From Patescibacteria group bacterium (GTDB lineage: Bacteria; Patescibacteriota; Dojkabacteria; J137), in NCBI GenBank assembly GCA_963169855.1, contig CAUJCN010000002.1:69508-133507 (forward strand): a stretch of 64,000 bases of DNA. The letters run 5' to 3'. This document shows positions 13,177 to 62,042 of the stretch, piece by piece (the first letter of the stretch is position 1; each line of letters opens with the position of its first letter). The position numbers and the translations under genes are program-made. The notes under the pieces are model-generated. The model had not been told where the DNA came from. It worked only from the letters and a program-made list of their open reading frames with translations, and did no database searches.

Positions 13177-13602
13177 ATGACGAGACGAATCACAGTTGTA
13201 AAACCTTCTGAAATGTTCAGACTAATGAACGACAACCTTACTTTAGGTGATTCTACATTTTCTTCACTTATTGAAAACAAATCAAGTTTAAGAATTAACA
13301 TTGAGAATATGTCTGATAAATTTGTAGTTACTGCAGTTGTACCAGGTTATAAAAAAGACGAAATTAGTATTTCTTTTAGAGATAACGAACTTCTTTTAGA
13401 AGCTCAGAAGGAGGAACAAAATGAGTCTTCTGATTCAGAAATAATTTTAAGAGAGTATTCTATTGAATCACTTAAAAGAAGAATCACTCTTCCAGAAAAA
13501 GTTGATGTAGAAAATGCCGAGGCAGAACTAAATGATGGTATTATGACCATAACGGTTCCAAAAATGCCTGAAATATTACCAAAGAAAATTAGTATTAAGT
13601 AA
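13177..13602 (+). CDS. Hsp20/alpha-crystallin family small heat-shock protein
   Basis: 141 aa; alpha-crystallin-domain pattern including the C-terminal AELNDGIMTITVPK. Confidence 0.75.
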   Translation: MTRRITVVKPSEMFRLMNDNLTLGDSTFSSLIENKSSLRINIENMSDKFVVTAVVPGYKKDEISISFRDNELLLEAQKEEQNESSDSEIILREYSIESLKRRITLPEKVDVENAEAELNDGIMTITVPKMPEILPKKISIK

Positions 13603-41989: not shown

Positions 41990-42415
41990 TTAAGTCTCGT
42001 TTTTAACAGGCTCAAATAGCTGCTTAGCTTCCTCGATAGTTTCTGATGTCTTTGTATTATGGCGAGTTAATTTGAGTTGTCCTGCACCTTTTCTATCTGT
42101 GAAATACGATCCTGAAAGTTCTCGAACTGGGTCGCCAATAATATCAAGTGTCACAGCTCCGTCATGTGGACGGTTATCGCCTCTTTTCCCATGAGGTGCT
42201 TCACTTTTGTAAAGATAGTAAAGTTGTAGTTTGTTTTGGTAACTTTTGGTTATCTTTGCTGTTATTGAGTTTGATTCTGAAGGTTTTTCGAAAAAGGAGC
42301 GAATATGAATTGAAGTAAGTGTTTGGTGAATACAAACATAGATATCTACATTGCCTTTCTTTCCATCTTTATCACTCTCATAATAAAGGTTACCTTTCCA
42401 AGTTCCATGCATTAC
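41990..42415 (-). CDS. hypothetical protein in a GC-richer segment (start placed at internal Met)
   Basis: the N-terminal 60 codons of tracked ORF 41990..42601 look like antisense read-through; MHGTWKGNLYYESDKDGKKG... onward looks protein-like. Confidence 0.35.
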   Translation of the reverse strand, partial: VMHGTWKGNLYYESDKDGKKGNVDIYVCIHQTLTSIHIRSFFEKPSESNSITAKITKSYQNKLQLYYLYKSEAPHGKRGDNRPHDGAVTLDIIGDPVRELSGSYFTDRKGAGQLKLTRHNTKTSETIEEAKQLFEPVKNET

Positions 42416-42433
42416 TGGGATCTGGAAGTAGTG

Positions 42434-42709
42434 ATGCGATATACAGAATTTATGTGGCAAAGATTCGAAGATGACATTAAACGACTTAACCACCTGAGAG
42501 GCGTAATGAATCAAAAAGCCGATGAGATTAGACCTACACCGCACAATACTCAAAAGAGTAAAGCTGAGATTACCGAAGAAGAAAATCAGATGCTCAGACA
42601 ATATCTAGTACACATACTTCAATACGGTACGCCTGAGGAGAGGAAAAACATACTAGGCGGTATCAAATCAAAGTTTGAACTAACAGACAGGAGATTAATC
42701 CTTAAATAA
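42434..42709 (+). CDS. small hypothetical helical protein, divergent from the previous gene
   Basis: MRYTEFMWQRFEDDIKRLNHLRGV...LTDRRLILK; codon usage slightly GC-richer than neighbours. Confidence 0.35.
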   Translation: MRYTEFMWQRFEDDIKRLNHLRGVMNQKADEIRPTPHNTQKSKAEITEEENQMLRQYLVHILQYGTPEERKNILGGIKSKFELTDRRLILK

Positions 42710-42732
42710 TTTTTAAAATATCTCTTGACAAA

Positions 42733-42759
42733 TTAGCAGTTAATGCATTAGACTGCTAA
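42733..42759 (+). promoter_or_regulatory. CIRCE-like inverted repeat (putative HrcA operator) in the hsp20 leader
   Basis: TTAGCAGTT-AATGCATTA-GACTGCTAA (9-N9-9 geometry like CIRCE); TTGACA hexamer 3 nt upstream. Confidence 0.55.
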
Positions 42760-42886
42760 TAGATAAATAACTAAGGACTTTCATCTGAGGTTTCTGAAAT
42801 TATTTACAACCTCTTTTGAATTCCCCAATATTTATCAAGTCTTATATTACTTAATTAATTTTAGGTATTATGAACAATACATTTAC

Positions 42887-42912
42887 TTAGCGATTTATAG
42901 TCATGTCGCTAA
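42887..42912 (+). promoter_or_regulatory. second, weaker CIRCE-like palindrome in the hsp20 leader
   Basis: TTAGCGA-N12-TCGCTAA. Confidence 0.3.
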
Positions 42913-43095
42913 AACAACTTTACAATTTAATACAATCTTGTTTAGTTAGGTAAAACCTAATTTGTACTGAATATCTTTTCAGTAGGACTAATTAAAATGT
43001 AAAGAAAGCCAAGTTCCCCGGCTTGTAAAAGATAGGGGAACCATTAATACAATACACTGCTATAGTTATTATTTAATTTATTAAAGGAAGATATT

Positions 43096-43566
43096 ATGAA
43101 AATTACAAAAAGAAACAATAATGACAACACGCAACTTGCAACAACATCTTACTCACCTGTGAGAAGTATGTTTGATGATTTCTTTAGGATGCCATCATTA
43201 ATTGACGAAATGTTTAATAGATCGGTTATGCCAAGTTATAGTAGTCTTTCTGCTGATGTTTGGGAAGAAGACGATAGCTTCTTTGTGAAAATGGCTTTGC
43301 CTGGAGTAACTAAAGATGATGTCGAGATTGAGGTTGACGCAGATGTAGTTAGAATCAAGGGTGGGAAAAAGGTAGAAGAGAAAGAAGATAATAAAAAGAA
43401 GTATTATTATCGAAGCCTTGATACTCAATTTGAGCAGGCATTTAATCTACCTACTGTAGTAGATGCAGAAAAAGTAGAGGCTAAGTTTAAAGATGGTGTT
43501 CTTGAAGTAAAGTTACCAAAGGCTGAACAATATAAGCCGAAAAAAATCTCAATAGAAGGTGAATAA
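43096..43566 (+). CDS. Hsp20/alpha-crystallin family small heat-shock protein (paralog 2)
   Basis: 156 aa; alpha-crystallin-domain pattern (DGVLEVKLPK). Confidence 0.8.
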   Translation: MKITKRNNNDNTQLATTSYSPVRSMFDDFFRMPSLIDEMFNRSVMPSYSSLSADVWEEDDSFFVKMALPGVTKDDVEIEVDADVVRIKGGKKVEEKEDNKKKYYYRSLDTQFEQAFNLPTVVDAEKVEAKFKDGVLEVKLPKAEQYKPKKISIEGE

Positions 43567-43585: not shown

Positions 43586-43617
43586 AGAAGGCGGACGCAA
43601 GTCCGCCTTCTCTTTTA
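43586..43617 (+). terminator. rho-independent terminator after hsp20
   Basis: gaaggcggac-gcaa-gtccgccttc followed by tcttttaat. Confidence 0.7.
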
Positions 43618-43915: not shown

Positions 43916-44005
43916 TGGCGGAGGAGACAGGATTTGAACCTGCGTCAGCCAGATGGCTGAACAGTCTTTCCAGGACTGCGCACTAGACCACTATGCGACT
44001 CCTCC
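43916..44005 (-). tRNA. tRNA-Ser (anticodon GGA), CCA encoded
   Basis: Hand fold: acceptor GGAGGAG/CTCCTCC, anticodon stem CAGTC/GACTG with loop CTGGAAA, long variable arm (CAGCC/GGCTG), T-arm GCAGG-TTCAAAT-CCTGT, 3' GCCA. Confidence 0.85.
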
Positions 44006-44245
44006 AGTTTGTAGTCTTCTTTTTAAATAGGCTCGACCATACCCAGTTTTTAACTGTTTCTCTCTTAGAATTGCCGACTTCCGATTTAAACATGCTTCGA
44101 AATAAATTAAAGTCAAAGGTCTCCTGTATTTGGTAGATGTGACTTTACCTAATTCATGTTCTTGCAATCTCTTGCTCAGATCCTCTGTAAAACCAATGTA
44201 CAGCTTTCCGTCTTGTGATTGTAAAACGTAGGTATAATATAGCAT
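43991..44245 (-). CDS. small GIY-YIG nuclease family protein (YhbQ-like)
   Basis: MLYYTYVLQSQDGKLYIGFTEDLSKRLQEHELGK; the tracked ORF extends upstream into the partial tRNA copy, so start placed at Met28; 3' end overlaps the tRNA-Ser 5' end by 15 nt. Confidence 0.65.
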   Translation of the reverse strand: MLYYTYVLQSQDGKLYIGFTEDLSKRLQEHELGKVTSTKYRRPLTLIYFEACLNRKSAILREKQLKTGYGRAYLKRRLQTGGVA

Positions 44246-44268
44246 TACTTTTTTAATATTCAAATAGA

Positions 44269-44324
44269 CACCACTACCCGCCTGCAACGCTTTGCGTAGC
44301 AATGCGGGCAGGTGCGACTCCTCC
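44269..44324 (-). repeat. partial duplicate of the tRNA-Ser 5' end with an inserted GC-rich hairpin
   Basis: minus strand reads GGAGGAGTCGCA + 36-nt GC-rich insert + TAGTGGTG; tRNA-Ser begins GGAGGAGTCGCATAGTGGTC. Confidence 0.5.
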
Positions 44325-44421
44325 ATTGGATTGACTGTAGATTATACCAAATCACATTAGTTTGCAGTATTCTTAAAAATACAACTATAATGAAATAAAC
44401 TTTACTTTTTACTATTATTTT

Positions 44422-56087: not shown

Positions 56088-58022
56088 TTAGTTGTTGTCT
56101 TTTTCTGGATCGATAACCTCGCTTGGTTCAGCTGGTTCATCGTTTGTTGGAGTTGGAACTCCAGATCCATCATTTGGTTGTGCTTCTGGTTGAGAATTGC
56201 TTTGATATAAAGTTGCATCTACGCCTTGCAAAGCTTCCATTAATTCCTTAGTAGCATTTTCTAAATTAGCCAATTCTGCGCTATTAGAATCTTTTACAGT
56301 CTTAAGTTCAGTTTTTGTTTTTTCAACACTTTCCTCAAGCTTCATCTTATCCTCTTCCTTCACCTTGTCTTTATTTTCAGATAAAAGTTTTTCTGTTTGA
56401 TAAATTACAGTTTCAGCTTCGTTTATAGCTTTTAATCTTGCGAGTTCTAACTGATCCTTTTGTGCATTCTCAGCAGCTTCTTTTACGAATTTATCGATTT
56501 CAGCCTGATCTAATTGAGTAGATGCTGTAATTGTAATCTGTTGCTCTTTCTGAGATTTAAGATCTTTAGCTTTAACATTCAAGATTCCGTTTGCATCTAG
56601 TTTAAATGTAATTGCAAATCTTGGTGTATTTCTTGGTGCTGGATCAATTCCATCCAATCTAAAGTTTCCTAAAACCTTGTTATCTCTTGCCAAAGGTCTT
56701 TCTCCTTGGAGAACTTTTACATCGATTGCTGGTTGATTATCCACGGCAGTTGTAAACATATCTTCAGTTTTTTCAGTTGGGATTGTTGTGTTTCTTGGAA
56801 TTAATACGTGCATTTCTCCAGCATTAACTTCTAAACCTAATGATAACGGTGTAACGTCCAATAAAGTAATGTCTTGAACAGAAGAATCTCCTGCAAGAAC
56901 TGCAGCCTGTAGAGATGCTCCAACAGCTACAACTTCATCTGGGTTAACACTTAGGTTTGGTTTCTTTCCAAAGAATTCTTCCACTTTCTTTAAAACCAAA
57001 GGCATTCTTGTCATACCTCCAACCATAATTACTTCTTGAATTTCTGATTTAGAAATTCCTGCGTCTGTAATAGCCTTATTTACTGAATCAAAAGTTCTTT
57101 CGATAAGATTCATTACTAATTTCTCGTAGTCTGCTTTCGATAAAGTCATTCTGAAATGCTTAGGACCTTTTGCATCAGCAGTGATGTAAGGTAAGTTCAC
57201 TTCTGTAGATTCTGCACTAGACAATGTAATCTTTGCTTTTTCTGCAGCTTCTTTTAATCTTTGTAATGCTGCGGGATCTTCTTTCAAATCAATTCCCTGA
57301 TCTTTCTTGAATTCAGCAATCATGTGGTCGATTAATACTTGGTCGAAGTCGTCTCCTCCTAAGTGAGTGTCTCCAGATGTAGATTTCACTTCGTAAACAC
57401 CATCTCCAATTTCTAAGACAGAAACATCGAATGTTCCTCCTCCTAAGTCGTAAACAATTATTGTTTGATCTCCTTGTTTATCAAGACCGTACGCAATTGC
57501 TGCTGCTGTAGGTTCGTTAATAATTCTTAGAACTTCTAGTCCTGCGATCTGACCTGCATTCTTTGTTGCCTGTCTTTGTGCATCATCAAAGTAAGCTGGA
57601 ACAGTAATTACTGCTTGATTTACAGGCTCACCTAGATAAGCTTCCGCGTCGGCTTTAATTTTTGCTAAAACTTTAGCAGAGATAACTTCTGGTGCAACCC
57701 ATTGATCACCAAATTTAATTTCAATTCCGTCTTTTGCACTCTTTCTAATTTCGAAAGGTAAAAGACCTACATCTTTCTGGACAGCAGCATCGTCGAAACG
57801 TCTACCGATTAATCTTTTGATTGAATAAAATGTCTGCTCAGGATTTGTAACCATTTGGTTTTTTGCTGTGATTCCAACAATTTCTGATTGAACGTCTACA
57901 GCTACAACAGATGGAACTAGTCTAGATCCTTCTTTACTCGTAATAACTTCAGGTTTTCCTGCCTGTACGAAGGCAACTACTGAGTTTGTTGTTCCTAAGT
58001 CGATTCCTACAACTTTTGCCAT
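56088..58022 (-). CDS. dnaK: molecular chaperone DnaK
   Basis: IDLGTTNS, DLGGGTFD, VGGMTRMP and other Hsp70 motifs. Confidence 0.95.
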   Translation of the reverse strand: MAKVVGIDLGTTNSVVAFVQAGKPEVITSKEGSRLVPSVVAVDVQSEIVGITAKNQMVTNPEQTFYSIKRLIGRRFDDAAVQKDVGLLPFEIRKSAKDGIEIKFGDQWVAPEVISAKVLAKIKADAEAYLGEPVNQAVITVPAYFDDAQRQATKNAGQIAGLEVLRIINEPTAAAIAYGLDKQGDQTIIVYDLGGGTFDVSVLEIGDGVYEVKSTSGDTHLGGDDFDQVLIDHMIAEFKKDQGIDLKEDPAALQRLKEAAEKAKITLSSAESTEVNLPYITADAKGPKHFRMTLSKADYEKLVMNLIERTFDSVNKAITDAGISKSEIQEVIMVGGMTRMPLVLKKVEEFFGKKPNLSVNPDEVVAVGASLQAAVLAGDSSVQDITLLDVTPLSLGLEVNAGEMHVLIPRNTTIPTEKTEDMFTTAVDNQPAIDVKVLQGERPLARDNKVLGNFRLDGIDPAPRNTPRFAITFKLDANGILNVKAKDLKSQKEQQITITASTQLDQAEIDKFVKEAAENAQKDQLELARLKAINEAETVIYQTEKLLSENKDKVKEEDKMKLEESVEKTKTELKTVKDSNSAELANLENATKELMEALQGVDATLYQSNSQPEAQPNDGSGVPTPTNDEPAEPSEVIDPEKDNN

Positions 58023-58205
58023 AATAATAAAAGTTTAAAAATAAAAAGGTCTAAAGATTAAATTAAGCTCGAAATTCAAAGATTGAAGTTCGAAAATTAA
58101 TTAATCTTACACTTTATTCCTAATGTGAGCCACTAGGTGGCTTGTCGAACCATCAAGGTAATTTCACATTTCGACTTCGCTCATGTGACACCTTTGCTGC
58201 TCGAA

Positions 58206-58232
58206 TTAGCAGTATAAGTATAAGCCTGCTAA
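58206..58232. promoter_or_regulatory. CIRCE-like inverted repeat ~180 bp upstream of dnaK
   Basis: TTAGCAGTA-TAAGTATAA-GCCTGCTAA; same TTAGCAG-N13-CTGCTAA core as 42733..42759. Confidence 0.55.
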
Positions 58233-58439
58233 TTTATTGTGTCAAGAATTAATATGTTACAAAATGGGATTTTATAGTTCTACTAACTGTTTTTTTAACT
58301 CTTCAATTAATTCATCAATAATTGTATGTAATGATTCAATTCCTGCGACAATCTCGATAGTTATGTTTAGCTCCCTTTGTAGATAATTCTTTTGTACTAC
58401 TAGGGAAGTTACGAAAGTGAGATGAAAGTTGCACAGCGA

Positions 58440-59693
58440 TCAAATTGCCGAAATCAATGCGTTAAGTTCAGGAAAGTTCTGGTTGAAAACCTCTACAATC
58501 TCGGATCTGAATACAGGACAAGTTTTATTGTAAATTTCAGTAATGCCAGCTTGATATGGATGTGAATCATAGTTTGGGTATTCTAGATCAAATTGCTCAC
58601 CATTATTACTTTCTGATTCTCGAATTTTATCTTGGGGCATTCTAACTGCAACTGCTTTATAGTGGGCAAAAGATCCCACAACTTTTCCAGTTGGGTCAAT
58701 AATTGTCACACATGATAGAAAAGGTAAATGAACAGGAAGTCCTCTGGCAGCTAATGATTCAACCCAACCTACAGCGTTGTAATATCCTGTTTTTTCAACA
58801 ATTGAGTATCCTAAAGCTATCAACTTCTTAGCTGTTTCTGACCCAGTAAAGTCAAAGAATGGTTCTTCAAAGACCTCGTTGTTTTTCATGTTTTCTACAA
58901 GTTCGCTTTCTGGAGTTTCCGAAACAATTTTATGTTGGAGTTTGAGAAATTCGCTTAAGTAACCGACATTAGCATCTGGTTGAACCCAATGACCTGCAGT
59001 TTGTATAGATTTTGTTGGAGAAAACCCCTTGGTCATCTGACCCAAAACTCGAGCGTATTCTTCGTAAGAACCGAAATATTTAAGCAAATACTGTCTAAAA
59101 ACATTAACTGGTAAATTTGCTGAGTATTTTAAAGATAAGATTTGCAGCGTTTTTATTGAAAAGCTGTACGAATCTAATGCTGTATTTAACGGAGGTTTCA
59201 GCTCTTGAGATTGAATATCGTAATAGTCTTCTTCGAAATGTTTTAAAACTGCTTCTAGCTCTTGTTTATCTGTTGGTAGTTCTGAATTTAAGTAGTTTTT
59301 GAAAATGACTTCCAGTACCTTTCGGATATCTGGATTATCGCTTACAACAAATAATTGTTTTCGACCAATTAATTCAGCGATTAGACTTCCAGCGTTTAAA
59401 TCTATCTGAGTATCTCCTTCCTTCGAAACGATTTGATCGAATAATGAAGATATAGCTATTTTTGCGATACTTGCTAGATAAACAGGTTCAGAAGGCTCCT
59501 GTATTAAAATATTTTCACCTTTGATAACTGAACTTGCAGTCTCGCTAGGTATTTCTAGAAATTCAGCTTCTTGGTATTGAGAAAATAGTTTTTGCTCACT
59601 TTCAGCATATGCCGAATTTACTTGTTCAATTCTTGCTTGAAGTCTTGATCTTATTACTTCTGTTTCTGGCGATAGTTCCCTAGGTTTATCCAT
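58440..59693 (-). CDS. hypothetical protein inside the heat-shock operon
   Basis: 417 aa, no motif recognised; 18 bp downstream of grpE. Confidence 0.45.
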   Translation of the reverse strand: MDKPRELSPETEVIRSRLQARIEQVNSAYAESEQKLFSQYQEAEFLEIPSETASSVIKGENILIQEPSEPVYLASIAKIAISSLFDQIVSKEGDTQIDLNAGSLIAELIGRKQLFVVSDNPDIRKVLEVIFKNYLNSELPTDKQELEAVLKHFEEDYYDIQSQELKPPLNTALDSYSFSIKTLQILSLKYSANLPVNVFRQYLLKYFGSYEEYARVLGQMTKGFSPTKSIQTAGHWVQPDANVGYLSEFLKLQHKIVSETPESELVENMKNNEVFEEPFFDFTGSETAKKLIALGYSIVEKTGYYNAVGWVESLAARGLPVHLPFLSCVTIIDPTGKVVGSFAHYKAVAVRMPQDKIRESESNNGEQFDLEYPNYDSHPYQAGITEIYNKTCPVFRSEIVEVFNQNFPELNALISAI

Positions 59694-59711: not shown

Positions 59712-60674
59712 TTACTTTCCCACTACTACTTTTGCTGGTTTAAAAACGCCTTCTCGATCTTTGTACTTGTAAGCTGAGCTGATTACAGCGATTACTTTTC
59801 CTTTCTGAGATTCGTCTGGAACAGGAATCATAGAAACTGCTTCCATCTTTTCTTTGTCAAAAATATCTCCAACATTAACAGCAATTGTCTCAACTCCAGC
59901 AGAAGCTACAGTTTGAACAATTTTATCTTTTGCTGATCTGATTGAAGATTTTGCATTTTCGATGTCTAGATTCTCATCATTCAGAGCCAGATTGATATCA
60001 TCGTGAATTTCTAAGATAGACCTGATTAATCCCATGTTTGCCATTGCCCCGAATAATGCTTTTTCTCCCTCAACTCTTTTCTGATAATTCTGAAAGTCAG
60101 AAATTAAAGTTATTCTTTTGCTAGTCTCGTCTTTTAATTTAGCTTCCAAATCAGCGATTTTTGCTGATTCACCTTTGTGTTCAATTTTTTCTGTTTCTCC
60201 AAATGAGTTTGCTAAAACTTTTTCCAAAAGACTGAATTCTCTTACTACAATGAAGTAATCTGCATCCTTATCTTCAAGAGTTACTAATTTTATACTCTCT
60301 GAGTCACTGGACACACTAAAGTAATCGCTACCTGAATATTTAGTTAAAAATCCTTGGAAATCGTTAGAAAAATAGTTCACATTTCCTATGTCTTCTCTGC
60401 CTGCGCTAGGTTTTCTAATTTTAACTACATCGACTCCTCCTAAAGAAGTATTTAGAATTCTATCTAGCTTAATAAAAATACCAGTTGAACTTTCTGCAAA
60501 AAATGAACCTTCTTTCAAAAGTTCTTCAGAAAATTGTTCGTATTCTTCTGTAGATTGAGCGAAAATAGAAATAAACTCTAGATTTTCCTCTCCAAAGTTT
60601 AGTTTATCTAAAAAGCTCGCTGCTTTATCTGCAATTTCGATGATTAATGCTGATGCTGACTTCATAATTTTCAT
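59712..60674 (-). CDS. grpE: GrpE with ~165-aa N-terminal extension
   Basis: C-terminal 155 aa carry LISDFQNYQKRVEGE, HDDINLAL, AGVETIAV, FDKEKMEAV, FKPAKVVVGK; N-terminal part unrecognised. Confidence 0.8.
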   Translation of the reverse strand: MKIMKSASALIIEIADKAASFLDKLNFGEENLEFISIFAQSTEEYEQFSEELLKEGSFFAESSTGIFIKLDRILNTSLGGVDVVKIRKPSAGREDIGNVNYFSNDFQGFLTKYSGSDYFSVSSDSESIKLVTLEDKDADYFIVVREFSLLEKVLANSFGETEKIEHKGESAKIADLEAKLKDETSKRITLISDFQNYQKRVEGEKALFGAMANMGLIRSILEIHDDINLALNDENLDIENAKSSIRSAKDKIVQTVASAGVETIAVNVGDIFDKEKMEAVSMIPVPDESQKGKVIAVISSAYKYKDREGVFKPAKVVVGK

Positions 60675-60780: not shown

Positions 60781-61119
60781 TCATCTCAGTGTTTTCTGGA
60801 TACTACCTAATATTAACCCCAACTCTCTAGCCTCTGAGCGGAAATCTTGGAATCTACTATCAGAGGTCACCGCGCTAAGTATATCCAACCAGTAAACAGT
60901 TTCTGCAGCTTCCTTTTTTGCTATTTTAACCCTCATTTTAAAGTCCTTAGGACCAATATGCTGGTTAGCCTCTATATAATTGGCACCTATAGAACCTGAT
61001 GAACGAATTACCTGTCTGAAATCGTCAATTAGTAGAGAGTTGTACTTGAATGTCGCTAGGTGCTGTCTTACGTTTATGGAAAAATTTTTGGCTCGATCTA
61101 CTAAATCAAATGTTTTCAT
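60781..61119 (-). CDS. four-helix-bundle protein (TIGR02436-like)
   Basis: 112 aa; QVIRSSGSIGANYIEAN...KIAKKEAAETVYWLDIL pattern. Confidence 0.55.
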   Translation of the reverse strand: MKTFDLVDRAKNFSINVRQHLATFKYNSLLIDDFRQVIRSSGSIGANYIEANQHIGPKDFKMRVKIAKKEAAETVYWLDILSAVTSDSRFQDFRSEARELGLILGSIQKTLR

Positions 61120-61237: not shown

Positions 61238-61972
61238 TTAGCGAATTACCAAAATCTTTCTAATTGCTTCGATAGTGAATTGAAGAAGAGGAATGATTCT
61301 ATTGTATCTCATTCTATTTGGACCAATAATTGCTAAGTATCCATGATTTTCGCCATTTATTCTCAATTCGTTGAAAACAATCGCATATTCACCAAACATA
61401 TCTTGACCGGATTCTTCGCCAATTAGAACATTTGTATCATGATCTTTGACTTCTCTGTTCATCATTTCGGATAAAACGCTGTAATCTTCCAAAATTGTTA
61501 AGATTCTTTTTAGATTGTCTGTATCTCTAAATTCTGGGATATTTACTAATTCTGAAAGTCCTGAATACATTACTTGACCGTCTACAACAGCAATCGCTGC
61601 GTTTCCGCTAAACTTGCTCAGCATCACTACACTTTTTCTAATAACCTGTTCTGAATCTTCGTTGACTTTGTGAAGAACATTTTGAATTTCGTCTTGAGTT
61701 CCAGTATCGATATCGTCAAATCCTATTGATTCTAAGTAGTCTACAAAGAACCTCCATCCTTTAGTCGTAGGTATTCTTCCACTACTTAGGTTCTTTTGAT
61801 AAAGATATCCTAGTAGTCCCAAATTCGACATCTCATTTCTAATTGTTGCTGGACTTAAGTCAAAATCGTATTTATTTTGAAGGCTGATAGAACCAACTGC
61901 TTCTGCAGTTTCTATAAACTCTTTGATTATTGTCAAAAGTAGCTCTTTTTGTCTCTCTGAGAACTTATCCAT
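61238..61972 (-). CDS. hrcA: heat-inducible transcription repressor HrcA (short form)
   Basis: N-terminal wHTH LSERQKELLLTIIKEFIETAEAVGSISL...LSPATIRNEMSNL...SSGRIPTTKGWRFFVDYL. Confidence 0.8.
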   Translation of the reverse strand: MDKFSERQKELLLTIIKEFIETAEAVGSISLQNKYDFDLSPATIRNEMSNLGLLGYLYQKNLSSGRIPTTKGWRFFVDYLESIGFDDIDTGTQDEIQNVLHKVNEDSEQVIRKSVVMLSKFSGNAAIAVVDGQVMYSGLSELVNIPEFRDTDNLKRILTILEDYSVLSEMMNREVKDHDTNVLIGEESGQDMFGEYAIVFNELRINGENHGYLAIIGPNRMRYNRIIPLLQFTIEAIRKILVIR

Positions 61973-62042
61973 GTTTGTAGTATACCATATATTCTAGAGC
62001 TGAAATCGAGCTTATACTATACATCTATGATATAATTAATAC

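Follow-up and report, generated by a model that had tools for sequence, protein, structure and literature searches.

The stretch of DNA analyzed in this work (hereinafter the window; 64,000 nt, G+C content 34.8%) comes from a Patescibacteria group bacterium of the Dojkabacteria (GenBank assembly GCA_963169855.1, contig CAUJCN010000002.1, positions 69,508 to 133,507 of the forward strand), a placement borne out by its HrcA and Hsp20 relatives (Candidatus Dojkabacteria, WS6), and encodes two paralogous small heat shock protein (sHSP) genes, hsp20, along with dnaK and hrcA. One of the hsp20 genes is separated from the stop of an upstream open reading frame (ORF) of 128 codons (42709) by a gap of 386 nt that extends to the hsp20 ATG (43096) and the sequence of which includes cTTGACAaaTTAGCAGTTAATGCATTAGACTGCTAAtagataaat. 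In this gap, a TTGACA hexamer is followed after 2 nt ('aa'; not 3 nt, as given in the initial annotation, which had correctly noted the hexamer) by a 27-bp palindrome that resembles the controlling inverted repeat of chaperone expression (CIRCE) and very probably is an operator at which the repressor HrcA acts by promoter occlusion. The features that bear on this prediction are the following.

42725..42730, plus strand: -35 hexamer TTGACA of the hsp20 promoter, invariant across the upstream regions of hsp20 orthologs
42733..42759, no strand: 27-bp operator TTAGCAGTT-AATGCATTA-GACTGCTAA, a G-type variant of CIRCE (G at arm position 7), predicted HrcA site
42749..42754, plus strand: -10 hexamer TAGACT, 18 nt past the -35 hexamer, from a promoter scan, 10/12 consensus matches
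42761..43095, plus strand: predicted hsp20 5' untranslated region (UTR), 335 nt, with the start placed from the -10 hexamer
43083..43090, plus strand: Shine-Dalgarno (SD)-like AAAGGAAG of hsp20
43096..43566, plus strand: hsp20, 156 aa, Pfam HSP20 (E 2.7e-22), 185 homologs
43586..43611, plus strand: hairpin resembling an intrinsic terminator, 3' of hsp20
58240..58245, minus strand: -35 hexamer TTGACA for dnaK, separated from the operator by 7 nt
58206..58232, no strand: second operator copy, before dnaK, reading TTAGCAGGC-TTATACTTA-TACTGCTAA on the minus strand; from a motif scan, conserved in L002
58217..58222, minus strand: -10 hexamer TATACT of the dnaK promoter, 17 nt past the -35 hexamer, within the operator spacer
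56088..58022, minus strand: dnaK, 644 aa, Pfam HSP70
61238..61972, minus strand: hrcA, short form of 244 aa, presumed repressor, Pfam HrcA (E 7.7e-22), no operator upstream
13177..13602, plus strand: paralogous hsp20, 141 aa, no operator, in an apparent operon

Promoters and palindromes of the heat shock genes in the window

The hsp20 palindrome, which agrees with the initial annotation in sequence and coordinates and, by the summary count, starts 336 nt upstream of hsp20, has the geometry of CIRCE, namely 9-bp arms and a 9-bp spacer that add up to 27 bp. Eight of the 9 arm positions are complementary, TTAGCAGT/ACTGCTAA being perfect, and the outer half-sites TTAGCA/TGCTAA of CIRCE are present. 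With 3 mismatches in the 18 arm positions, this site is the closest match to canonical CIRCE in the window. Two exact copies of the motif TTAGCAG-N13-CTGCTAA, at 42733 and 58206, are present in the window, compared to 0.00 occurrences in 100 dinucleotide-preserving shuffles, even when 1 mismatch was allowed. Both copies are intergenic, and each is located behind a TTGACA hexamer on the strand of a chaperone gene.

The second copy is located between dnaK and its upstream neighbor, in a gap of 417 nt in which the dnaK strand reads TTGACA-caataaa-TTAGCAGGC-TTATACTTA-TACTGCTAA and TTGACA-N17-TATACT makes up a near-consensus promoter. The corresponding promoter of the relative L002, the HrcA of which is 81% identical, reads TTGACA-cattaaa-TTAGCAGTC-TTATACTTA-TACTGCTAA, with the operator 29 nt before the dnaK ATG, and in L003 (58% identical) TTAGCACTC-AACCTTACC-TCTTGCTAA is found 83 nt before dnaK. 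At hsp20, the -10 hexamer (TTGACA-N18-TAGACT) falls within the spacer and the right arm of the palindrome, and a TAnnCT or TAnnGT hexamer occupies the matching position in the hsp20 orthologs. The positions of the -10 hexamers place the predicted transcription starts of hsp20 and dnaK near 42761 and 58210, respectively. Given that the -10 hexamer is located inside the palindrome at both genes, the palindrome appears to be a promoter-overlapping operator that lies outside the transcribed leader; the initial proposal that it is carried by the hsp20 leader has to be abandoned because the predicted start is at its 3' edge, near 42761.

The paralogous hsp20 gene starts 8 nt past the preceding ORF and, as had been noted initially, is devoid of the palindrome: no TTAGCA-N15-TGCTAA was detected upstream of this gene at up to 2 mismatches, and differential control of the two hsp20 paralogs is consistent with the sequence. 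The operator half-sites are also absent upstream of hrcA in the window (61973-62042), where an extended -10 element, TGgTATACT, is located six nt before the ATG, and in L001; the L002 hrcA promoter keeps TTAGCA-N15-TGCTAT over the same position. Given the location of the extended -10 element, the hrcA mRNA in this genome is probably leaderless and, given the absence of the half-sites, HrcA autoregulation probably has been lost. Elements of other heat shock systems, namely the HspR-associated inverted repeat (HAIR; CTTGAGT-N7-ACTCAAG), the CtsR site RGTCAAANANRGTCAAA and the sigma-32 promoter CTTGAAA-N13-15-CCCCAT, were not detected at up to 2-3 mismatches near hsp20, dnaK, hrcA or the hsp20 paralog in their upstream regions.

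The genes of the dnaK region are arranged in the order hrcA, a gene for a 23S rRNA intervening sequence (IVS) protein (60781..61119), grpE (59712..60674), a 417-aa ORF (58440..59693, minus strand) that has no match in Pfam, and dnaK. L002 retains hrcA-grpE-dnaK without interrupting genes; the ancestral hrcA-grpE-dnaK operon has been broken up in the lineage of the window. The GrpE protein encoded here consists of 320 aa and has an N-terminal extension of approximately 165 aa beyond the Pfam GrpE domain.

Orthologous hsp20 promoters and the proposed regulon in metagenomes

Upstream DNA was taken from hsp20 orthologs with 68-89% protein identity. In all retrieved promoters (L012-L022 and L143-L151), a 27-bp palindrome is located 1-2 nt past TTGACA, and its arms vary as follows.

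L149: TTAGCACTC-ACTATGTTA-AAGTGCTAA, near-canonical CIRCE
L020: TTAGCACTC-...-AAGTGCTAG
L018: TTAGCACTC-...-CACTGCTAA
L016/17: TTAGCACTC-...-AACTGCTAA
L146: TTGGCACTC-...-GACTGCTAG
L022: TTAGCAGTC-...-ACCTGCTAA
L014: TTAGCAGTC-...-GGCTGCTAA
L013: TTAGCAGTC-GGCATGTTA-GACTGCTAA, perfect G-type, arms complementary at 9/9 positions
window: TTAGCAGTT-...-GACTGCTAA

The mixed arms in L016-L018 and L146 bridge the canonical (L149) and the G-type (L013) ends of this series, and the existence of such intermediates at the homologous position argues for the descent of the hsp20 element from CIRCE.

Metagenomes were scanned with the pattern TTGACA-N{1,8}-TTAGCAG-N13-CTGCTAA, which yielded at least 120 matches, and the genes located downstream in the operator orientation were classified by blastx. 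Among the 120 matches listed, 111 are located directly upstream of, and in the right orientation for, hrcA (at least 56), lon (at least 30), hsp20 (at least 19), dnaK (at least 3), groES (at least 2) or clpB (at least 1); the other matches listed are at a contig end (4) or before no recognized gene (5). The identity of Lon was confirmed by Pfam for 8 of the 8 proteins tested, and ClpB and Cpn10 were confirmed as well. The distance between the -35 hexamer and the operator among the matches listed is 1 nt for lon (30/30), 4-5 nt for hrcA, 4-7 nt for dnaK and 1-7 nt for hsp20, and the -10 hexamer is inside the operator in every gene class, with an hrcA-class consensus, TTAGCAGTC-gTGnTAttn-TACTGCTAA, that amounts to an extended -10 element. 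Many metagenomic hrcA genes have their ATG 0-2 nt past the operator, which implies leaderless mRNAs. In metagenomic contigs that encode hrcA-grpE-dnaK-dnaJ operons, the operator is at the head of the operon, and no separate site precedes dnaK or dnaJ. Nearly half of the matches listed precede hrcA, which is the usual signature of the site of an autoregulated repressor.

The complete products of the metagenomic hrcA genes are almost all 240-246 aa in length and share 32-58% identity with the Dojkabacteria set, which shows that they span deep lineages; the named members of this HrcA cluster belong to Levybacteria, Beckwithbacteria, Shapirobacteria, Woesebacteria, 'Microgenomates group' and 'Patescibacteria group', and one entry labeled as a Methanoperedens metagenome-assembled genome is probably a binning error.

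Recurrence of the motif at other chaperone genes had been named beforehand as a test of the reading of the palindrome as a heat shock operator derived from CIRCE. The motif does recur, at dnaK in the window and at hrcA, lon, hsp20, dnaK, groES and clpB in metagenomes, and this recurrence, together with the ortholog intermediates, supports the proposal. The promoters concerned include those of class I chaperones, as is typical of CIRCE, namely the dnaK copy in the window and hrcA-grpE-dnaK-dnaJ, dnaK and groES in the metagenomes. As for groES, the gene initially suggested for such a check, a tblastn search covering the window and the first 15 loci detected neither it nor groEL, and the metagenomes provide at least 2 groES sites, one of them with a Cpn10 product confirmed by Pfam.

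The hsp20 leader and its surroundings

The predicted 5' UTR of hsp20 shows extensive conservation: its sequence blocks are conserved in L012, L013, L014, L016/17 and L146, and partly in L022, L143, L144 and L151. The leader is not present in all relatives: in L018-L021 and L149/150, only 61-65 nt separate the end of the operator from the ATG. Comparison of the conserved leaders reveals the following elements, all on the plus strand.

42762..42836: 5'-terminal long imperfect hairpin (helices 1 and 2) with conserved TAAGGA and GAATTCC blocks; 23 pairs, 3 compensatory
42840..42875: helix 3 hairpin (CTTATATTACTTAATTAATTTTAGG block); 14 pairs, 2 compensatory
42887..42912 (core 42890-42909): helix 4, TTAGCGA-N12-TCGCTAA; 2 of the 5 counted pairs compensatory
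42946..42960: hairpin TTAGGT-AAA-ACCTAA, read from the alignment
42965..42984: helix 5 hairpin TACTGAAT-ATCT-TTTCAGTA; 8 pairs, A:U replaced by G:C in L146
43005..43041: possible H-type pseudoknot of stems S1 and S2 (helix 6) with the A-rich conserved loop TAAAAGATA

RNAalifold applied to 8 sequences predicts 71 pairs, 14 of these with compensatory changes. Covariation was counted over 57 pairs in six helices, with the DNA operator and long-range pairs left out: 95.6% of the cells are paired and 14 pairs have changed on both sides, a result that none of 500 shuffles reaches (0/500), whereas slid controls give 39-49% paired cells and 2-4 compensatory pairs. The fold of the single sequence reproduces the helices, with a z-score of -4.0, and the frequent G:U pairs indicate that the structure is specific to the hsp20 (plus) strand. 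The 5'-terminal hairpin is recognizable in L143, L144 and L151 as well, and the TTAGGT hairpin has the variants TTAGA/TCTAA (L013), TTCAGA/TCTGAA (L016 and L146) and GCTAGA/TCTAGC (L022) and is absent in L014. A search of Rfam found only tRNAs above the gathering threshold in the window, the best matches within 42700-43110 having E-values of 2 and 9.4, far below gathering.

The initial annotation also pointed to TTAGCGA-N12-TCGCTAA as a second, weaker palindrome. It is indeed present (42887-42912), but it does not behave as an operator or a CIRCE-like site. Its spacing is N12 in the window and N11 in L013 and L014, and in place of its sequence L016 and L012 have GTGGCA/TGCCAC and ACGACA/TGTCGT, respectively. 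Given that sequence and spacing change while the pairing is kept, we consider it an RNA hairpin (helix 4) and reject it as a weak HrcA site. Near the 3' end of the conserved region, S1 pairs AAAGCC (43005-43010) with GGCTTG (43020-43025) and is nearly invariant, with 1 compensatory change by eye (L012), and S2 (helix 6) pairs GTTCCCC (43013-43019) with GGGGAAC (43035-43041), with compensatory changes in 6 of 7 pairs. The order a-b-a'-b', the first loop of 2-4 nt and the conserved A-rich loop fit an H-type pseudoknot, so S1 and S2 might, hypothetically, form together.

Several other interpretations of the leader were considered and discarded. A thermometer of the repression of heat shock gene expression (ROSE) or fourU type that masks the SD sequence was rejected given that the predicted ribosome-binding site is largely unpaired at 20-45 C (mean unpaired probability 0.35-0.71, with little change over this temperature range, in 9 leaders), and the hsp20 SD is unpaired in the centroid structure too. 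A conserved upstream ORF was rejected because no start codon is present in L012, L146 or the window and L151 has a different frame. A minus-strand terminator (hairpin with a T-tract, 43024-43006) was rejected given that the T-tract is not conserved, L016 and L146 being A-rich at this position; the flagged hairpin is the reverse complement of the pseudoknot stem S1, the partner helix of which, S2, covaries. Finally, a dispersed repeat or miniature inverted-repeat transposable element was rejected because no other copies were found in the window or at unrelated loci. As separate observations, an SD-like TAAGGA is conserved near the 5' end of the leader (leader module 1; window 42772-42860, L013 9665-9745), and some relatives have a short ORF downstream of it: MRFLNL..., 25-27 codons long with an ATG start, in L013, L014 and L143, and an ORF with a TTG start in L144.

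Taken together, the covariation data suggest that the hsp20 leader is likely to be a functional structured RNA and a candidate for a new cis-regulatory RNA. In bacterial mRNA decay that depends on the 5' end, a 5'-terminal stem-loop favors stability, and the presence of such a stem-loop at +1/+2 suggests mRNA stabilization; our best guess on the role of the leader is stabilization or another form of post-transcriptional control. The predicted dnaK leader of approximately 188 nt (58023-58210, minus strand) is also structured, with 3 stable hairpins predicted and a fold z-score of -2.96, and has no match in Rfam. Both genes with predicted HrcA control in the window, hsp20 and dnaK, have acquired long structured leaders.

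Could the leader, acting as an RNA thermometer or in a riboswitch-like manner, be the main regulator of hsp20, with the palindrome being secondary? RNA thermometers such as ROSE are classically found at sHSP genes, the conservation of the leader is far above the neutral expectation at 70-87% protein identity, and the leader is structured, with compensatory changes and a possible pseudoknot that has a conserved A-rich loop. Nevertheless, the ribosome-binding region is predicted to stay largely unpaired across the temperature range in all 9 leaders, several orthologs have no recognizable SD, the conserved helices stop 34-59 nt before the ATG, Rfam provides no match, and the close orthologs L018, L020 and L149 have no leader but keep the operator. 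A leading role of the RNA is therefore unlikely, and we favor primary control through the operator, with the understanding that the two layers of control are not mutually exclusive.

The hsp20 gene moves together with its promoter, operator and leader, and its neighborhood differs in every relative: in L012, L013, L014, L016, L022 and L143, the neighbors are a tRNA, DUF1801, OmdA, clpB, restriction-modification genes or a recombinase, such that hsp20 appears to be located in rearrangement-prone regions. In L016/L017 (6922-9618) and L146/L148 (1-2634), clpB directly precedes hsp20, and the 380 nt between the two genes contain the hsp20 operator and leader; the region before clpB in L016/L017 yielded no CIRCE-like site (up to 1 mismatch in the 12 outer positions). 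In the window, the minus-strand ORF 41990..42601 encodes a Cap15 cyclic-dinucleotide receptor domain (E 7e-18), an effector type of the cyclic-oligonucleotide-based antiphage signaling system (CBASS). This ORF overlaps the plus-strand ORF 42323..42709, which has no Pfam match and ends 15 nt before the hsp20 -35 hexamer. No gene for a cGAS/DncV-like nucleotidyltransferase (CD-NTase) adjoins the Cap15 ORF, and the locus (41990-42709) may be a remnant of a defense island. On the other side of hsp20, tRNA-Ser(GGA) (43916-44005, minus strand) overlaps by about 15 nt with the 3' end of a 111-codon ORF (43991-44326, minus strand) the product of which, judged by eye, may be GIY-YIG-like; it is possible that this ORF, or the stop assigned to it, is not genuine.

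HrcA, the identity of the operator and known systems

HrcA is encoded in the same genome as the palindromes, as the CIRCE system requires, and the identification of hrcA in the initial annotation is borne out by the match to the Pfam HrcA family and by the fold match to T. maritima HrcA (PDB 1STZ). Residues 2-85, which comprise the winged helix, align with 1STZ residues 13-96 (E 2.6e-15), and in a profile of 61 HrcA homologs, positions 2-90 align with 1STZ 14-102 and positions 136-201 with 1STZ 234-292. Thus, the winged helix and the C-terminal part have counterparts in 1STZ, and the short HrcA lacks an equivalent of approximately 86 1STZ residues (roughly 103-233). The missing segment is what we take to be the 'inserted dimerizing domain' of the 1STZ structure. 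When the short HrcA is compared with the proteobacterial HrcA in L009-L011, the gap is approximately 103-108 aa. The AlphaFold model of the short HrcA (pLDDT 91.8) has 1STZ as its best PDB match, with a TM-score of 0.83 by query length and 0.64 by target length. Of the three domains of canonical HrcA in 1STZ (winged helix, GAF-like and inserted), the short form retains the winged helix and the GAF-like fold. The best 120 homologs are 233-261 aa long, and the named ones come from Dojkabacteria, Doudnabacteria or 'Patescibacteria group'.

The CIRCE geometry, the outer half-sites, the association with heat shock genes and the linked hrcA together point, as the most economical reading, to an HrcA operator of this branch of the candidate phyla radiation (CPR), most likely a lineage-wide CIRCE variant bound by a shortened HrcA. 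The G-type consensus, TTAGCAGTC-N9-GACTGCTAA, differs from CIRCE, TTAGCACTC-N9-GAGTGCTAA, by a symmetric C/G swap at arm position 7. Under the proposed mechanism, an HrcA dimer bound to the operator would block RNA polymerase at the sigma-70-type promoter at normal temperature, and inactivation of HrcA by heat or by chaperone titration would free the polymerase. In this genome, hsp20 and dnaK, which are 15 kb apart, would make up at least a part of one HrcA regulon, the hsp20 paralog and hrcA itself would be outside of it, and transcription from approximately 42761 would yield the 335-nt multi-helix leader.

Several points weigh against this interpretation. The arms of the hsp20 site depart from those of canonical CIRCE (TTAGCACTC/GAGTGCTAA), position 7 being G and position 21 being C, and hrcA in the window has no upstream operator, unlike the at least 56 metagenomic hrcA genes. 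With approximately 86-105 residues missing compared to 1STZ, it is not guaranteed that the short HrcA dimerizes and binds DNA in the textbook manner. Some of the orthologous hsp20 sites have degenerate arms (the right arm in L012, GACTGCCAG, and the left arms in L143, L144, L146 and L151), so in places the regulation may be weak or lost. The groES, lon and clpB genes of this genome are located outside the window. No canonical C-type site was detected in 721 kb of metagenomic contigs carrying G-type sites or in the first 11 loci, but the scan was conditioned on the G-type motif and TTGACA, so that the frequency of C-type sites in the same lineages cannot be deduced from it. The leader alignment consists of 8 sequences from approximately 5 lineages, and we infer HrcA binding, the mechanism of repression, the transcription start and the leader function from sequence.

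Given these reservations, one has to ask whether the palindrome is bound by some other heat shock repressor, with HrcA binding something else or nothing. The mismatch to the strict CIRCE consensus at position 7, the shortening of HrcA and the absence of a site upstream of hrcA in the window would all agree with such a scenario. It is nevertheless very unlikely: 56 of the 120 metagenomic sites listed are directly before hrcA, over its promoter, intermediates connect the orthologous sites to near-canonical CIRCE, the outer TTAGCA/TGCTAA and the 9-9-9 geometry are shared with CIRCE, the winged helix is well conserved with respect to T. maritima HrcA, and the examined loci show no consistent linkage to any other regulator gene. 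In another scenario, the main role of the inverted repeat would be that of a hairpin in the 5'-terminal part of the mRNA, where it would either influence mRNA stability or serve as an attenuator. This scenario draws on the possibility of an 8-bp stem and on the upstream ORF that ends 15 nt before the -35 hexamer with no terminator found in between, such that read-through would include the repeat; furthermore, CIRCE in B. subtilis is downstream of the start site and has been reported to affect mRNA stability. We regard this scenario as highly improbable because TTGACA keeps its place 1-2 nt before the repeat in every hsp20 ortholog, such that the -10 hexamer falls within the repeat and the predicted start coincides with its 3' edge, because the arms are conserved as sequence (TTAGCA/TGCTAA), unlike the covarying helices of the leader, and because in metagenomic hrcA genes with their ATG 0-2 nt past the repeat, a hairpin could not be part of the transcript. 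DNA with a G+C content as low as that of this window (35%) often contains short AT-rich inverted repeats, but a chance palindrome in AT-rich intergenic DNA has a negligible probability given the absence of matches in 100 shuffles (0/100), the second copy at dnaK, the conservation in orthologs and the location of 111 of the 120 listed metagenomic copies at heat shock genes.

With an HrcA operator as the favored interpretation, we tentatively put forward a broader scenario, which we hold as an even-handed possibility rather than a probable outcome. The Microgenomates branch of the CPR, including Dojkabacteria, might have re-specified CIRCE by a symmetric C-to-G change at position 7 that is read by a minimal HrcA of approximately 243 aa without the inserted domain; this would be a case of co-evolution on the scale of a phylum, with a compact regulon (hrcA-grpE-dnaK-dnaJ, lon, hsp20, groES and clpB), and the leader of Dojkabacteria hsp20 would represent a novel class of structured RNA, its H-type pseudoknot included, that provides additional control after transcription. 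CIRCE/HrcA being among the most conserved repressor-operator pairs of bacteria, a clade-wide symmetric shift of the operator coupled with a shortened repressor would provide a natural test of the co-evolution of repressor specificity and operator. The G-type motif also offers a sequence handle for the heat shock regulons of uncultured CPR bacteria, in which gene regulation is almost unstudied; standard CIRCE pattern searches would miss the G-type sites. For annotation, the motif marks hsp20 and dnaK as co-regulated stress genes. A literature search for HrcA or CIRCE in CPR/Patescibacteria, or for a G-type variant, found none among the papers covered, which does not prove that the variant is unpublished.

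Among the known systems, the sHSP thermometers (ROSE, the Synechocystis hsp17 5' UTR and fourU) share with the hsp20 leader a 5' UTR with multiple hairpins before an sHSP gene. The leader described here differs in that neither masking of the SD or AUG nor melting at 20-45 C is predicted, and it is much longer (335 nt), with no Rfam match to ROSE or any other family. The resemblance to CIRCE/HrcA, as in the hrcA-grpE-dnaK-dnaJ and groESL operons of B. subtilis, is closer. Common to both are the 9-N9-9 geometry and the TTAGCA/TGCTAA half-sites, the location at dnaK, groES and hrcA promoters, an HrcA with a conserved winged helix encoded nearby and, in the metagenomic relatives, the position of the site at the head of hrcA-grpE-dnaK-dnaJ operons. 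The differences are that here arm position 7 is G (C in the other arm) instead of the canonical C (G), that the site covers the core promoter (-35 to +1) whereas the canonical site is downstream of the start, that the repressor is approximately 100 aa shorter, and that the regulon reaches lon, hsp20 and clpB. The HrcA site has been characterized as 'extremely conserved in Bacteria', and the HrcA regulon of Mollicutes includes the dnaK operon, lon and clpB (PMC5138195); that study describes neither the G-type variant nor HrcA of the CPR. The regulons of these minimal genomes (Mycoplasma and Spiroplasma) thus parallel the metagenomic regulon in content (dnaK, clpB and lon), but Mollicutes have kept canonical CIRCE, whereas in the lineages analyzed here the consensus has shifted and an internal segment of HrcA is missing.

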